IMG/VR virus record: IMGVR_UViG_3300046170_000302
Length of the DNA stretch: 64,000 bases
Source of the DNA: a virus
Taxonomy: Duplodnaviria; Caudoviricetes
Strand: one strand, 5' to 3'
A program made the position numbers and the translations under genes. The notes beneath the pieces were generated by a model. The model worked only from the letters and a program-made list of their open reading frames with translations, had not been told where the DNA came from and searched no databases. Below, piece by piece: positions 39,925-64,000 of the stretch. Each line of letters starts with the position of its first letter. The stretch's first letter is position 1.

Positions 39925-40476
39925 ATGAACTTAAAAAATGATAAAGTTATATCTGTAAAGGAAAAACATAATATATTAATTTGTCAATATCCATTTTGGG
40001 AATCTCTTAATCCAAAACTTCACGTCCTTATAAAAAATTTTCCAGATGAATATCAAAAAAATACAAATGTAAAAGCAAAAATGACTCACTATTGTGTCAT
40101 AAATCAAGAATTTGAAAAAATTGGAAGATGGGTATATCAAAAATTACCATCTATTTGCCCTCAAGGTTTAAATACAACATCTAAATTTAAATTAATAGAT
40201 ATTTGGGGTGCTTTATATAATGAAAATGACTATGCGACTTCTCATCAACATAGACCTTTAGCGTACTCATTTGTTTATTTTGTCAATACTCCAAAGAATT
40301 CTTCTCCTTTAGTATTTAACTCATCAAATACTAAAATAAATCCAGAATCAGGAAAATGTGTTATTTTTCCTTCTTGGTTAGTTCATAGTGTTCCAAAAAA
40401 TAAATCTAAAGAAAGAAGTGTGATAGCAGGAAATTTTGCATGGATGTCAGAAGATACCCCATATAGATTTAATTGA
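39925..40476 (+). CDS. Putative 2OG-Fe(II) oxygenase (TIGR02466-like)
   Basis: WGALY...HQHRP...SFVYFV...VIFPSWLVHSV...RSVIAGN. Confidence 0.8.
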   Translation: MNLKNDKVISVKEKHNILICQYPFWESLNPKLHVLIKNFPDEYQKNTNVKAKMTHYCVINQEFEKIGRWVYQKLPSICPQGLNTTSKFKLIDIWGALYNENDYATSHQHRPLAYSFVYFVNTPKNSSPLVFNSSNTKINPESGKCVIFPSWLVHSVPKNKSKERSVIAGNFAWMSEDTPYRFN

Positions 40477-40501
40477 CATCCCAATAAAACTGATATATAG
40501 T
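40473..40501 (+). promoter_or_regulatory. Sigma70-type promoter
   Basis: TTGACA (40473-78), 17 nt, TATAGT (40496-501). Confidence 0.75.
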
Positions 40502-58968: not shown

Positions 58969-59047
58969 TTTCAACTCTCTATGTTGCGTTTCTGATGTTG
59001 ATATTGTGTGGTGGTATGCACCTTCACATGGCCTATCCAGAAAAGAA

Positions 59048-59335: not shown

Positions 59336-59936
59336 ATGACTTTTCTGGAGTTTATGACTGAAGGCAAGGCATTAGACCCTGCATTAGCTGGTGCTGCTTC
59401 TATTCGTCAGACAGGTGCTGGTGGTCGTAAGTATCCAGAAAGGAAGAAGAGTGAGGGAGAGAGAACGAGAGTCAAGGCAATTGGTGGTGGTAAGACCGCC
59501 CCTGTTGCCTCATACTAAGGACAGAAAAGATATTGGAGACACAAAGGCTCGTTCTAATGTAGAGCAACAACCAACTCGTGAGAGAGGAACTGCAGGTCTT
59601 TCAGCTAAAGAACAACAGAGAAAGGCATATAGGGAGAGAAAAGCTAGAGAGAGTGGTGGTTCTACTGCACCAAAGAAGAAAGAGGCAGAGAAGAAAGCAA
59701 CAGAACTTTTGAAGAAGAAGACAACTAAAGCTGTGGCACCTGGTTATAAACCAGCACAGGCATCTGGTATGACTAGAGCTGAAAGAGACAAGAGAAGAGG
59801 TGAAGGTGAGAGAATGTTGAAAGGTATTATGAAGGACCAGGAAACTGACAAGTATAAGAAGGAAACAGGAACCAATCCTGATGCTAAGGGTAGAACAAAG
59901 ATACTTGGAAGAGTTAACAAAAGGATGTCAACATAA
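59336..59936 (+). CDS. Lys/Arg-rich late protein; +1 frameshift at ~59516
   Basis: MTFLEFMTEG start behind CTAAATA (59302); removing one T joins the two ORFs. Confidence 0.6.
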
Positions 59937-59942
59937 TATAAT

Positions 59943-59967
59943 AGAGGGTATAACCACCCTCTTTTTT
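59943..59967 (+). terminator. Intrinsic terminator
   Basis: AGAGGGT-ATAACC-ACCCTCT followed by a T run. Confidence 0.8.
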
Positions 59968-59968
59968 T

Positions 59969-60244
59969 ATGAAATATATTGCGACTAAGAATATTACTAT
60001 CAATACAAAGATTGGCACTAAGGTTAAAACTCTTCAGTTGGTTCTTGATAAGGTTGTATCACCATCAAAACTGAAGGAGTTATCTAAACGACAGATTAGA
60101 GAATACACCAAAGAAGTATATGAAGGTGCAGATCTGTCATTCTTGACACCAGAGGACAAGAAGTATTATAATAAACACAAGAAAGACCCTGATATGCAAT
60201 GGGCGCTTGATATGGTATATGAAGAACAAGGAACAACCAACTAA
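59969..60244 (+). CDS. Hypothetical protein
   Basis: 91-aa ORF. Confidence 0.55.
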   Translation: MKYIATKNITINTKIGTKVKTLQLVLDKVVSPSKLKELSKRQIREYTKEVYEGADLSFLTPEDKKYYNKHKKDPDMQWALDMVYEEQGTTN

Positions 60245-60440
60245 TTCAAACATACTGACACCGAAACCACCTAAAAATGGTTTTATTGTTGGTGCTTGGG
60301 ATGACCCAGAGATGTATGCTTGTGTTCCTTTTTGTGGTAGGTTGATGATTATCCATCAAGGAAAACAACTGAAAGTATGCAATAATGGTGATAGTGCTCG
60401 TAACTTTATTGACAAACACAAGAAACGTAGAAAGAAATAA
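60219..60440 (+). CDS. Small basic hypothetical protein
   Basis: MKNKEQ...GFIVG...YACVP...MIIHQGKQLKVC. Confidence 0.6.
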   Translation: MKNKEQPTNSNILTPKPPKNGFIVGAWDDPEMYACVPFCGRLMIIHQGKQLKVCNNGDSARNFIDKHKKRRKK

Positions 60441-60487
60441 TATACCTCACCTCTAAATTGCTCTACTGATGTAAGACACACAAACAA

Positions 60488-60715
60488 ATGACACACTCCT
60501 CCACAGGTCAACGAGTTGGAACCCTTACTGAACTTGCTGAACTAAAGAAAACATATCGTAAACAGGATTTTAAGTTTACTCAAGATCAACGTCAACGATA
60601 TGATTTACTCCTAGAACTTCGTCGTAGTCATGTTGCTGAATACTATGAAGATGGTTTAGTTTGGATTGGTCCATCGATGGCAGGTAAGAAACTAGAAGAG
60701 GATGACGCAGAATGA
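60488..60715 (+). CDS. Small hypothetical protein
   Basis: 75 aa, follows repeat copy 1. Confidence 0.7.
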   Translation: MTHSSTGQRVGTLTELAELKKTYRKQDFKFTQDQRQRYDLLLELRRSHVAEYYEDGLVWIGPSMAGKKLEEDDAE

Positions 60716-60846
60716 TTACTCTTAAACGTGTATGTTCACTGAAGACTAAACAACTTCGGTGGACATATGATGGTAAAGTTCTTCTTAAGTCATACGAAGT
60801 TGCTACCATTGGTAGAAAGAATAAACTTCAACAATTCTACAAATGA
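60712..60846 (+). CDS. Small hypothetical protein (44 aa)
   Basis: ATGA-coupled on both sides; translated by hand. Confidence 0.5.
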   Translation: MITLKRVCSLKTKQLRWTYDGKVLLKSYEVATIGRKNKLQQFYK

Positions 60847-61008
60847 CAACATTTAATTGTAAAGGTGCCTGGTATGACAAACAGGGACGAAGACACAACT
60901 TTGAGATTGAATCTGATCGATCAGAGCGTTCATTCATCAAAGAACTTGTAGAGGCACAGGTATCCCACAAATCGTGTGGTAATTAACAATGTCTCACAAA
61001 AACGGTAA
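60843..61008 (+). CDS. Small hypothetical protein; +1 frameshift at ~60960
   Basis: MTTFNCKGAWYD...EAQ-YPTNRVVINNVSQKR*. Confidence 0.5.
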
Positions 61009-61063
61009 GTTTATTGTTACTCACCTCTAAATTGCTCCACTACTGTAAGACACTTCAACCACT

Positions 61064-61954
61064 ATGGCAAACACACATCTCCCACATCCAGAAGATACCA
61101 TCCTCACGGGTGATCTGAGAGCATTCAGAGATCTTTATGGACCCGGACATGTGTCCCTTAAGATTGACGGTGCTCCCTCTATTGTGTGGGGTAAACATCC
61201 AGAAACTGGTCGGTTCTTTGTGTGTACTAAAGCGGCATTTAACAAGAAAAAGAATCGTATCTGTTACAACAACGAGGATGTTCATACTCACTTCGGTCAT
61301 CAGGAAGATGTAGCAGACATGCTATTTTTGATGTTGAAGTATATTCCCCGTGACATCTTCACTGGTGTTTATCAGGGTGACTTCATGGGTTTCGGTCGTA
61401 CCGATGCTTTCATGAACAACACTCTAACTTATGTGTTTCCTGAAGTTATTCAACAAAAACTTGTCATCGCACCTCACACAATCTATGATGTAGTTGGTAA
61501 GTTGTCTGACGCAGTTGCTGAACCTCTCCGTGAGGTATTTGCTGACACTCCACACATCAAGTGGGTTCAACCTTCTGTCGATTTCATTCATCAGAATGTC
61601 AAACCTCCCGTCTTTGATCTCAGTAAGGTTCAGTTTATGTCTGACAAAGAGTCATTCGTAGCTCAACAACAGGTCAACGCTCTTATCAAGTCAGGTCAAA
61701 CACCTGAAGATTGTGATCTTAACTGGATTCTAGGTGACAACTTCCTCACCAATCTGTATCAGTTGTTGATTGATATCAAAGAAGATCTCATGAAGTCTAT
61801 GATTGTTCATGACTCTCCTAAGTGTTATCTTCCTGATGGGACTGAGGTTGTGGGTGAGGGTTTCGTATTCTATTCTGAGTCTGGTCGTTCTTACAAACTC
61901 GTTGATCGTCCTGTGTTCGCATATACTAACTTCACCACTGGTAAGTTCAACTAA
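61064..61954 (+). CDS. Ligase-like nucleotidyltransferase-fold protein (DUF6267-like), function unknown
   Basis: KIDG (motif I), YQGDF (III), EGFV (IV), YKLV (V) in 296 aa. Confidence 0.6.
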   Translation: MANTHLPHPEDTILTGDLRAFRDLYGPGHVSLKIDGAPSIVWGKHPETGRFFVCTKAAFNKKKNRICYNNEDVHTHFGHQEDVADMLFLMLKYIPRDIFTGVYQGDFMGFGRTDAFMNNTLTYVFPEVIQQKLVIAPHTIYDVVGKLSDAVAEPLREVFADTPHIKWVQPSVDFIHQNVKPPVFDLSKVQFMSDKESFVAQQQVNALIKSGQTPEDCDLNWILGDNFLTNLYQLLIDIKEDLMKSMIVHDSPKCYLPDGTEVVGEGFVFYSESGRSYKLVDRPVFAYTNFTTGKFN

Positions 61955-62015
61955 CTAGAAGGGGTGATAATATTACTCACCCCCAAATTGCTCCATCTAT
62001 GTAAGGTTACACACC

Positions 62016-62226
62016 ATGGATCCAATCACAATTTCAAGATCACACTATGACACTATTGTTGAGAGTGTAGAGGAAGTTCTCAAAGTTCTCAACAAAGTGA
62101 ACTATGATTGTGATGACACTAGATCCAAAAAATGTATGTCACACGGCACCATTTGCTGTGGGATATTCACAAAGTGTAGTGACTCAACTTCTCTCTAACC
62201 TCAAAACAATCAAGGAGAACAACTAA
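62016..62226 (+). CDS. Small hypothetical protein; +1 frameshift at ~62120
   Basis: Follows repeat copy 3; the corrected frame ends at TAATG with the next gene. Confidence 0.5.
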
Positions 62227-62402
62227 TGAATTCCACCATGGAAAATGTGATTGATGTGATGGGTGAAACCTATTTCAGTAGGTTCATGGACTTTGTAGAT
62301 AATGAGGATTTGGAAACATCAAAGGCACTTATGGATGAGTGGATTGTTGATGGTCAAGATCCTCAAGATGGTGGAGTCGAGTTCATCTGGTTAGAAGAAT
62401 GA
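62226..62402 (+). CDS. Small acidic hypothetical protein (58 aa)
   Basis: Translated by hand; coupled on both sides. Confidence 0.55.
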   Translation: MNSTMENVIDVMGETYFSRFMDFVDNEDLETSKALMDEWIVDGQDPQDGGVEFIWLEE

Positions 62403-62938
62403 TGAGGTTACTTCAAAAGATCACATCAAGTGCTATTGGTCTATCACTCCTTACAATTCCAGGTGTGAGTGCAAAGATGAACTCAAGTCATGATGAACTA
62501 AAAAGAGCTCTGAATGATGTAGGTGTTGAAGTTTTCTTGAATGAAACAAAGTTATGTAATGGTAGTAAATCTGGTATGTATTCTCCTGACTATGATGCAA
62601 TTCTCATATGTCAGGATGATAGAATTGAAACATCAGATCAAGAGGTTGAATGGACAGAAAATGATTATGATACTTTGAGACATGAATCACAACATGTTGT
62701 TCAGGATTGTATGGAAGGAATTGATAATAACAAGATGTCACTATTTTTTAGTAACGAAATAGAATATCTGGAGTTTGTGATCATGGGTTTGACAAAATCA
62801 GAATTCTTTCAGATTGTCGAGGCATATCGACCACTTGGTGATGATGTTCTCTTGAATGAATTGGAGGCATTCGCTGTAGCTAAAGGTGTAAAACCTGACA
62901 CTATTGCTAAAGCTATTCGTGGTGTATGTGGGAATTAA
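62399..62938 (+). CDS. Exported HExxH protein (zincin-like)
   Basis: Signal-peptide-like N-terminus; TLRHESQHVVQDCM; ELEAFA. Confidence 0.7.
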   Translation: MMRLLQKITSSAIGLSLLTIPGVSAKMNSSHDELKRALNDVGVEVFLNETKLCNGSKSGMYSPDYDAILICQDDRIETSDQEVEWTENDYDTLRHESQHVVQDCMEGIDNNKMSLFFSNEIEYLEFVIMGLTKSEFFQIVEAYRPLGDDVLLNELEAFAVAKGVKPDTIAKAIRGVCGN

Positions 62939-62992
62939 AGTTACTCACCACTAAATTGCTCCAGTAGTGTAACCACTCACCAAACACACATC

Positions 62993-63475
62993 ATGGGAAC
63001 TAGAGGCAGAATCGGAATCAAACTCATCGATGGTTCAATTCTTTCGGCATATCACCACTGGGATTCATATCCTCAGTGGTTGGGTGTTAAACTCGTCAAG
63101 AACTTTAATTCACAAGAACTAGCATCTGATCTGATTGATGGAGGTGACATGTCCGCATGTTATTCTACTCACACTTGGGGTTCTGAACCTCTCAGACAGG
63201 AAGTGATTCAACCTGACGGATCTGTCACCAAAGAGTTGGTTATGAACAAAGATGGTGAGACTGTTTACACTAAAGTCAAGGCAGAAGCATCACCTCAGTA
63301 TTACTCAGAACGGGGTGAGGACACTCCTCCACGTTTAGATAAGGATCTCTTTGAGTTCCTTGATAAAGGTGAAGAATACGCATATATCTGGGAAGAAGGT
63401 TTCTGGACTTGTTATGATCTTCATCAGTTTGATGATCAAGAACCTGAAATCGTAGAAATACCTCAAGTTCTCTGA
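62993..63475 (+). CDS. Hypothetical phage protein
   Basis: MGTRGRIGI...YHHWDSYPQWLG...GDMSAC...EEYAYIW; follows repeat copy 4. Confidence 0.75.
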   Translation: MGTRGRIGIKLIDGSILSAYHHWDSYPQWLGVKLVKNFNSQELASDLIDGGDMSACYSTHTWGSEPLRQEVIQPDGSVTKELVMNKDGETVYTKVKAEASPQYYSERGEDTPPRLDKDLFEFLDKGEEYAYIWEEGFWTCYDLHQFDDQEPEIVEIPQVL

Positions 63476-63529
63476 TAGATTGTTACTCACCTCCAAATTG
63501 CTCCACTTATGTAACCACACATTCAAACT

Positions 63530-63712
63530 ATGATTAACTACCTCGTCAAATGTCCATCCGATCCTTATGAGAATACCGATTGTTTCGGTGATCTTGATAG
63601 GGCATGGGATCTCTGTTACAACCTCTCTGAAGAGTATGGATACGCAGAGGTTGGATATTACAATGTCAAAGGACATTATCAACTCGTAGGTGACTACACT
63701 AACGGTCGTTAA
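63530..63712 (+). CDS. Small hypothetical protein
   Basis: 60 aa, follows repeat copy 5. Confidence 0.65.
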   Translation: MINYLVKCPSDPYENTDCFGDLDRAWDLCYNLSEEYGYAEVGYYNVKGHYQLVGDYTNGR

Positions 63713-63713
63713 T

Positions 63714-63914
63714 ATGAACTACACTAAAGAACAACTTGTGGATGCACTTGTTCATGAGTGGGAGTATCTCTGTCATGACGATTATGATCCACAAGATCCA
63801 ACACCAGAACAATATCGCAAAGAGATGGAAGAACTCACAATCGAACAATTGATTGAAGAGACTGACACAGGTGAGGGATTTACATTAGAAGATTTCATGG
63901 ATGTTCACAGTTAA
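63714..63914 (+). CDS. Small acidic hypothetical protein
   Basis: MNYTKEQLVDALVHEWEYLCHDD... Confidence 0.65.
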   Translation: MNYTKEQLVDALVHEWEYLCHDDYDPQDPTPEQYRKEMEELTIEQLIEETDTGEGFTLEDFMDVHS

Positions 63915-63966
63915 TAAAGTTACTCACCTCTAAACTGCCCCACTATTGTAATCACTCATTCAACTT

Positions 63967-64000
63967 ATGACACTCACACAAACCAAAACCGAATATCTCA
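63967..64000 (+). CDS. Partial ORF (3'-truncated)
   Basis: ATG 14 nt after repeat copy 6. Confidence 0.5.
   Translation, partial: MTLTQTKTEYL

Follow-up and report, generated by a model that had tools for sequence, protein, structure and literature searches.

A fixed-length repeat before the small-gene cassettes of a T4-like cyanophage as a putative phage-private promoter and recombination boundary

The 3' end of a 64,000-nucleotide DNA stretch from a tailed virus (Caudoviricetes; IMG/VR record IMGVR_UViG_3300046170_000302; the whole stretch is referred to here as the window) carries six copies of a short repeated element, one in front of each cassette of small genes. As judged by comparative sequence analysis, this element is probably a phage-private promoter that doubles as a recombination boundary. 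What can be read directly is the repeat family and where it occurs, how its positions line up with start codons, terminators and ribosome-binding sites, and the confinement of recombination breakpoints to the element; promoter activity, an exact start, expression early in infection and the nature of the recognising protein are inferred. T4-like cyanophages rank with the ocean's most abundant viruses, and to our knowledge the launch of early transcription in these phages, without the MotA/AsiA of T4, is only partly understood.

The initial annotation of the window had described six copies of a 34-bp element of fixed length, and this description was borne out. All six copies lie on the + strand (Table 1; the T of the TCACC core is taken as element position 0, T0). 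A degenerate 19-mer matched six times in the window versus 0.09 matches expected, and none of 100 shuffles reached six. Model R1, a sequence-only covariance model built from 55 copies in the window and related contigs (alignment A1), recovered the same six copies at E ≤ 1 and, in the 64-kb window at that threshold, no copy beyond those at 60.4-64.0 kb. The 55 copies align without any gap, and the conserved span, from about -8 to +31 relative to T0, is slightly longer than 34 bp. Conserved in the window clade are A-8, TTACTCACC (-3 to 5), C6, AAA (8-10), TGC (12-14), A18, T23 and TAA (25-27), and copy 1 has the variant 5' box TACC-TCACC. As the initial annotation had also noted, every window copy starts 1-17 nt past a stop codon and is followed by an A/C-rich leader devoid of GGAG-like (Shine-Dalgarno) sequence; the next ATG falls at element position 40-48. 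Furthermore, a scan for sigma-70-type hexamer pairs found none that coincides with any of the six copies, in agreement with the claim that they hold no canonical sigma-70 promoter. A terminator-like site directly upstream was likewise found at none of the six, and a CCAGTT-N4-AAsTG box was not enriched in the 64-kb window. The array was expected to continue past the window, and indeed near-identical contigs carry at least five more element copies.

Table 1. Element copies, cassettes and neighbouring features at the 3' end of the window (predicted starts are approximate)
Feature	Position	Strand	Details
Element copy 1 (initially annotated as 60442-60475)	60434..60480	+	T0 60447; predicted start ~60466-60471; R1 44.7 bits, E 2e-12
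Element copy 2	61010..61053	+	T0 61021; predicted start ~61040-61045; R1 51.5 bits
Element copy 3	61964..62005	+	T0 61977; predicted start ~61996-62001; R1 46.3 bits
Element copy 4	62932..62979	+	T0 62945; predicted start ~62964-62969; R1 48.0 bits
Element copy 5	63474..63521	+	T0 63487; predicted start ~63506-63511; R1 54.0 bits
Element copy 6	63912..63958	+	T0 63924; predicted start ~63943-63948; R1 51.2 bits
Cassette G	60488..60986	+	three small overlapping open reading frames, 75/44/47 aa, function unknown; phrog_3262
Cassette D	61064..61954	+	296-aa DUF6267 protein
Cassette E	62016..62938	+	three open reading frames, 60/58/179 aa, function unknown
Cassette A	62993..63475	+	160-aa open reading frame, function unknown, phrog_1987
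Cassette B	63530..63914	+	two open reading frames, 60 and 66 aa
Cassette C start	63967..64000	+	cut by window end
Intrinsic terminator	59943..59962	+	ends preceding gene block; 480 nt ahead of array
Host-type promoter TTGACA-N18-TATAAT	60143..60172	+	perfect, 12/12; inside phrog_3612 gene; 270 nt upstream of copy 1
Array-head open reading frame	60219..60440	+	73 aa, basic, Cys-rich; heads array in all window-clade contigs

The element occurs in four clade-specific versions, those of the window clade, S-B05, P-TIM68 and S-SM2 (the G-run type), which all align without gaps and share invariant C3, A8-A10 and T23. Common to all versions is AAA (8-10), exactly 12 nt, and T(G/A)TAA (23-27), and the 5' box differs by clade: S-B05 copies have the same TTACTCACC box as the window with a different middle part, P-TIM68 copies have GTTAGTTACC, and S-SM2-type copies have a run of six G. 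The 3' half includes a TATAGT-like stretch at positions 18-23, and the window clade is without a TATA core. S-B05 carries 14 copies, P-TIM68 13 and S-SM2 12; the G-run version is present in 91 IMG/VR stretches, and arrays of up to 11 copies are found in IMG/VR contigs that share 96-99% identity with the window in the DUF6267 gene. Throughout the window clade and the three isolates, every copy is co-oriented with the genes. All copies of P-TIM68 and of S-SM2 lie within one 9-16 kb region of small open reading frames (ORFs), and S-B05 has 12 copies in one small-ORF stretch on the minus strand and two further copies upstream of DUF6267 and helicase genes at 156-157 kb. In the S-B05 record, most of the array is on the opposite strand, ~116 kb from the DUF6267 and helicase copies, and two annotated 102-bp repeats at the borders (L020:11400-11501 / L014:14729-14830; record positions 40399-40500 and 158813-158914) both match the window's 73-aa array-head gene. 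This suggests a large inversion through the array-head gene, or an assembly artefact.

The position of the transcription start could be narrowed from three sides. In the G-run clade, ~5-8% of the copies have a canonical intrinsic terminator (ΔG -9 to -19 kcal/mol, T6-8) on their upstream side, at a distance of 10-25 nt. At least five unrelated gene contexts are represented, each with the next gene directly downstream and, in two cases, with the ATG of that gene at position 24. With a terminator 10-25 nt upstream and a gene directly downstream, transcription must restart inside the element. The start codons show a matching register. The first ORF-opening ATG is bimodally distributed in 159 copies from the four clades: it falls at 22-26 in eight (exactly at 24 in six), never at 27-36, and at 37-49, with a peak at 43, in most of the others. 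Among 221 distinct G-run copies, the ATG lies exactly at 24 in 33, which belong to at least six unrelated gene families, and none is found at 31-35, the next group being at 36-55; eight cases with an ATG at 30 all come from one orthologue group, whose members have another ATG further downstream. At least 98% of the G-run copies have a purine at position 24. The DUF6267 protein of S-SM2 aligns with its orthologues from residue 1, and this start codon is therefore genuine. Such a gap would arise from messages that begin at position 24 or a few bases upstream of it, with a leader that is either lacking or long enough for translation. Finally, Shine-Dalgarno-like AAGGAG or AAGGAA sequences occupy positions 28-35 in P-TIM68 and in contigs L034-L038, which places the start upstream of position 28. 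Taken together, the terminators, the ATG register and the ribosome-binding sites indicate that transcription probably starts at about element positions 19-24. The mRNAs of the family would then be leaderless or nearly so, or would have a short A/C-rich leader of 13-25 nt; for the window genes, A/C-rich leaders of 16-29 nt without a Shine-Dalgarno sequence are predicted. As for timing, a perfect host-type promoter lies 270 nt upstream of the first copy, and the element could equally be delayed-early as immediate-early. A separate feature of this part of the sequence is that positions 22-27 read NTG-TAA (ATG > GTG > TTG > CTG) in ~85% of window-clade copies, a one-codon start-stop at or just past the predicted start.

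Several observations weigh against a private promoter. Most window-clade copies have no upstream terminator, and RNA reading through from upstream would include the element. This same observation favours an alternative in which the element acts as RNA within polycistronic early transcripts, as an operator for a RegA-type translational repressor or as a processing site at which cleavage would release monocistronic, partly leaderless mRNAs. As RNA, the sequence AAAUUG...(U)AUGUAA of the window and P-TIM68 versions resembles the consensus aaAAUUGUUAUGUAA selected in vitro (SELEX) for T4 RegA (PMC3014915); RegA is annotated in Syn9, and the start-codon register would be accounted for just as well by a 5' end created through processing at position 24. 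However, a strong terminator 10-25 nt upstream blocks read-through in those G-run copies where a gene nevertheless follows directly, and RegA sites contain nothing that corresponds to the clade-specific 5' box, the most conserved part of the element. The likeness to AAAUUG/AUGUAA is missing from the S-SM2 and S-B05 versions, the RegA-like halves are 7 nt further apart in the element than in the SELEX consensus, and the window element lies 13-25 nt upstream of the actual ATG. Neither a conserved RNA structure nor a match of the element to any Rfam family was found. An action at the RNA level in place of a promoter is thus quite improbable, and operation by RegA is possible as a minor rival or as a second function on read-through transcripts.

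The remaining points against a private promoter concern what would recognise it. The element position weights contain no sigma-70-type -35/-10 pair that fits the predicted start, and neither a -35 nor the TG of an extended -10. The TATAGT-like stretch at 18-23 does not qualify as a canonical -10, because a start at 19-24 is too close to it. The only sigma-70-compatible -10 candidate is TAAAyT at positions 7-12, which is well kept in the window clade and in P-TIM68; it fits 74% of the G-run copies, T12 being C in 25% of them, and it is shifted or absent in S-B05, where T12 is G in all copies. Genomes with and without the element alike show only a gp55-type sigma factor and no additional one. 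A search with PF00940 (T7-type RNA polymerase) gave no match in S-B05, P-TIM68 or S-SM2, and the control genomes were equally silent. The 73-aa array-head protein was considered as a co-occurring factor and rejected, since a homologue was found in one other element-bearing genome only, that of S-B05.

We considered whether the element might instead be an ordinary host sigma-70 promoter with a -10 only (TAAAyT at 7-12 or TATAGT at 18-23), read without a phage factor, its flanks being kept alike by concerted evolution through gene conversion. In the window clade and in P-TIM68, A8 and T12 of TAAAyT do not vary, and a start 6-7 nt downstream of this hexamer, near position 19, where 90% of the G-run set have a purine, suits all register data. 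The S-B05 and S-SM2 copies contain TATAGT, for which an aTTACt-N17-TATAGT reading is possible, and recombination within the repeat would homogenise the 5' half. On the other hand, the departures at T12 in the G-run and S-B05 copies and the lack of a -35 and an extended -10 weigh against this explanation. TATAGT as a -10 would give a start at about position 30, which would cut off the ATG at 24 in at least 33 copies, two of them behind terminators, as well as the ribosome-binding sites at 28-35; as a canonical -10 it was rejected on the strength of the ATG-at-24 genes behind terminators. Moreover, the 5' box differs between clades and is invariant within each although their hosts overlap, and the same regions hold TTGACA-N17/18-TATAAT promoters, so that a second signal suggests a different regulatory class. 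We therefore regard an ordinary -10-only promoter as unlikely. For the putative phage-private promoter, recognition probably requires either the -10-like TAAAyT at 7-12 together with a factor on the 5' box, or a phage-specified specificity factor; host polymerase with a candidate phage factor is the most likely option for the recogniser.

The second part of the proposed role, that of a recombination boundary, was approached through a cassette map, in which the cassettes of 18 window-clade loci were clustered by their 5' ends. A conserved backbone, G-D-E-A-B-C-F-I-H, runs across the 18 loci, and relative to it cassettes J, U and V are whole-cassette insertions. Cassette B (two genes, MINYLVKC...), of which cassette L is a paralogue, is tandemly duplicated in L004 (1203-2364) and L021, each B-type copy having its own element in front; this duplication is attributed to unequal crossing-over between element copies. 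An unrelated cassette K replaces E in L028-L030, cassette order is changed in L012 and L025, and cassette content differs among near-identical contigs. The ORF content between repeats, whose comparison in relatives the initial annotation had proposed, is therefore gained, lost, duplicated and reordered as whole cassettes, and gene order is not invariant.

The exchanges could be placed relative to the element. In junction alignments, homology of the upstream cassette enters the element and ends at positions 11-20, and homology of the downstream cassette starts at about -6 or, elsewhere, just past the element. A systematic scan of 23 distinct junction-type pairs placed all breakpoints within -14 to +44 of the element. 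Contigs assembled from four marine RNA libraries, which are our only expression data, do not resolve the 5' ends of RNA and may include sequence derived from DNA, also diverge and rejoin at element edges, with loose ends at 61017, 61055, 61961, 62000, 62936 and 62972, and one contig joint, 63468>63912, omits cassette B; breaks of these contigs at a repeat may be artefacts of De Bruijn assembly. Repeats of ~40 bp in one orientation every 0.4-1 kb would offer a substrate for homologous recombination by the phage, and recombination at them would exchange, delete, duplicate and reorder whole cassettes, which would make the repeats cassette boundaries. Because the crossover points are spread and a hairpin is absent, the exchanges fit homologous recombination within the ~40-bp repeat and not a site-specific system.

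The initial annotation had offered a second possibility, an integron-like boundary. In this case the element would be an attC-like site acted on by a dedicated recombinase, with cassettes excised as circles. Copies do bound every cassette, as attC sites do, cassette content varies among relatives, and the GTTAC/GTAAC ends recall the inverted repeats of core sites. These inverted ends, a further claim of the initial annotation, did not withstand closer analysis: only 4 bp are complementary, RNAalifold predicts 0 pairs and no consensus structure, the pairing is no better than in shuffles and shows no covariation, the outer pair is unpaired in 31 of the 55 copies, and the ends are missing from the S-SM2-type (G-run) version. 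At 34 bp the element is also far shorter than an attC site; its breakpoints spread from -14 to +44 in place of one fixed crossover point, and its cassettes each have a putative expression signal in front of them, which sets them apart from the cassettes of integrons. No integrase or recombinase domain was found among the array ORFs, and the contigs of the four RNA libraries contained no circle-type joint that goes back, with the limit that contigs drop rare forms. An integron-like site is thus extremely improbable. Of the interpretation put forward initially, a non-canonical promoter doubling as a recombination site, the dual role fits the terminators, the ATG and ribosome-binding-site register, the co-orientation and the breakpoints within the element, and the interpretation as a whole is partly supported.

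Repeated promoter cassettes are known from T4-type phages as promoter early stem-loop elements (PeSLs), described in phi1/RB49, PST/T4 and nt-1/KVP40 (Arbiol et al. 2010, PMC2839356; Comeau et al. 2014, PMC4122927). Three parts define them: a sigma-70 promoter close to the consensus (-35/N17/-10), a stem-loop ahead of it and a Shine-Dalgarno sequence (PMC2839356, PMC4122927). No dense PeSLs were found in S-PM2 (Puxty et al. 2015, PMC4503421), and PeSLs are unreported in cyanophages. The parallel to PeSLs drawn by the initial annotation holds in part. Like PeSLs, the element is a short, repeated, one-orientation expression signal before small ORFan genes of hyperplastic regions, and whole cassettes are inserted, deleted and replaced between close relatives via recombination in the repeat; some G-run copies also have a terminator stem-loop directly upstream. 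Unlike PeSLs, the element has no sigma-70 -35/-10 pair at canonical spacing, and the window copies in addition lack the upstream stem-loop and the Shine-Dalgarno sequence, although the copies of P-TIM68 and L034-L038, unlike those of the window, do carry an AAGGAA/AAGGAG Shine-Dalgarno. It also differs in that the predicted start immediately follows the TATAGT-like stretch and in that part of the family would be leaderless. Mini-circles with one excised cassette, a further PeSL trait, left no circle-type joint in the contigs of the four RNA libraries, in which rare forms are dropped. By this comparison the element would work like a PeSL without being a member of that class.

Is the family then related to the early signals already mapped in cyanophages? 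Doron and colleagues (ISME J, 2016) reportedly mapped a novel regulatory element of early genes in Syn9 and P-TIM40. We searched for our element with R2, a broad covariance model of the family that gives 12-14 matches in positive genomes. R2 found zero matches in Syn9, P-SSM2, P-HM2, S-RSM4, P-TIM40, S-N03, S-B68, S-T4, S-SCSM1 and ACG-2014f and just two weak ones in S-PM2 (E 0.011 and 0.07), hence no confident match in 11 cyanomyoviruses in total. In S-N03, S-B68, S-SCSM1 and ACG-2014f, a Syn9-type upstream signal precedes the orthologous DUF6267 gene instead (L136-L140), in which ~45-55 nt separate an AAG(G)TG..CAC box from a downstream -10 (TATACT or TACTAT), with GCCCC in between. By eye, the same AAG(G)TG..CAC/GCCCC signal stands upstream of small genes in Syn9 at 46.3-51.3 kb, and it is probably the published Syn9-type early element. 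DUF6267 orthologues thus carry either the 34-bp family or the Syn9-type signal, and since the orthologous gene carries the latter in the model-negative genomes, the 34-bp family looks like its lineage-specific counterpart. The two have in common that they are non-T4-like, phage-specific and located upstream of early-type small genes of T4-like cyanophages. Their sequences are unrelated as compared through R2 and the upstream regions of the Syn9 genome, not through the published logo: Syn9-type upstream regions have the AAG(G)TG..CAC box, the GCCCC stretch and an ordinary TAYWMT -10. When the early motif of Syn9 was sought de novo from k-mers, the late-promoter core alone was recovered. The searchable literature, which does not extend to logos in figures, held no description of the motif of our element, and literal strings gave only unrelated primers.

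A further resemblance is to the promoters of single-subunit polymerases. The fixed length of ~25-30 bp, the (C)ACTATAG-like end at the start, the A-block ~14-16 nt upstream and the lineage-specific 5' part recall the layout of promoters for polymerases of the T7, SP6 and mitochondrial type, as in the T7, SP6 and K11 consensus sequences. Unlike these, the window clade has no TATA core, and the resemblance serves as a lead only.

These results point to a second, lineage-restricted family of putative early-type promoters, of which at least four variants co-exist and public viral contigs contain more than 300 copies; the family is unlike Syn9 upstream regions, with no match in Syn9 or P-TIM40. They also provide evidence at the sequence level that PeSL-type modular shuffling of ORFans operates in natural cyanophage populations. 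The element belongs with the mobile promoter cassettes of T4-type phages, and the logic of its recognition is potentially new: its geometry, with a start abutting the TATAGT-like stretch, frequent leaderless starts and a clade-specific box, points to a further recognition factor, for which the 45-bp element is a concrete bait. More tentatively, and less likely than not, a subset of marine T4-like cyanophages may have swapped the Syn9-type early system for a private initiation system, in which a phage-specified factor (virion-delivered or immediate-early) or an unrecognised polymerase would read the clade box and the AAA...TATAGT initiator. RNA would then start at or just before the start codon, giving leaderless or Shine-Dalgarno-free messages, and the same repeats would shuffle early cassettes in ocean populations. 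In practical terms, the covariance models can be used to mark early gene cassettes and transcription units when cyanophage genomes or viromes are annotated.

The window itself can be assigned to a T4-like cyanomyovirus (Kyanoviridae) with no close cultured relative, as judged by its T4-type virion genes and by its nearest isolates. Its long ORFs are all on the + strand and include T4-type baseplate, fibre and virion genes, and its nearest isolates are the cyanomyoviruses S-B05, RB11-B, RN05-S, S-B43 and P-TIM68, at ~40-54% amino-acid identity. A megablast search of the array region against 50,697 phage records returned no match, and in the nearest record, the 48-kb fragment G001, the array is absent. 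The array begins 3' of the fibre genes, and its ORFs encode small proteins without assigned function and one DUF6267 protein (cassette D), which has a KxDG motif, resembles a nucleotidyltransferase or ligase and is conserved in 461 phage records. The only homologue found of the array-head protein is in S-B05. The host-type promoter upstream of the array is kept in five related contigs (L002, L010, L023, L026 and L029), although its spacer has undergone substitutions. P-TIM68, S-SM2 and S-B05 also have TTGACA-type consensus promoters scattered among their element copies; the region is thus shared by two promoter classes.

Some element copies are not followed by an obvious gene. No ORF was found within 140 nt of 24 of the 221 G-run copies, and several G-run copies are followed by GTGAGGGGCA... 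with no ATG nearby. In one cassette variant, at L002:3922-4100 and L006:2845-3020, the element is separated from the next ORF by ~100 nt that begin with TGTAGGAGACGGACCC, are richer in GC and contain no start codon. Upstream of the array, contigs of two and three independent RNA-library runs have one base fewer than the window at 59021 and 59515, respectively. This points to single-base (homopolymer-type) assembly errors in the window, which may have split a gene at ~59336-59936 into two ORFs.

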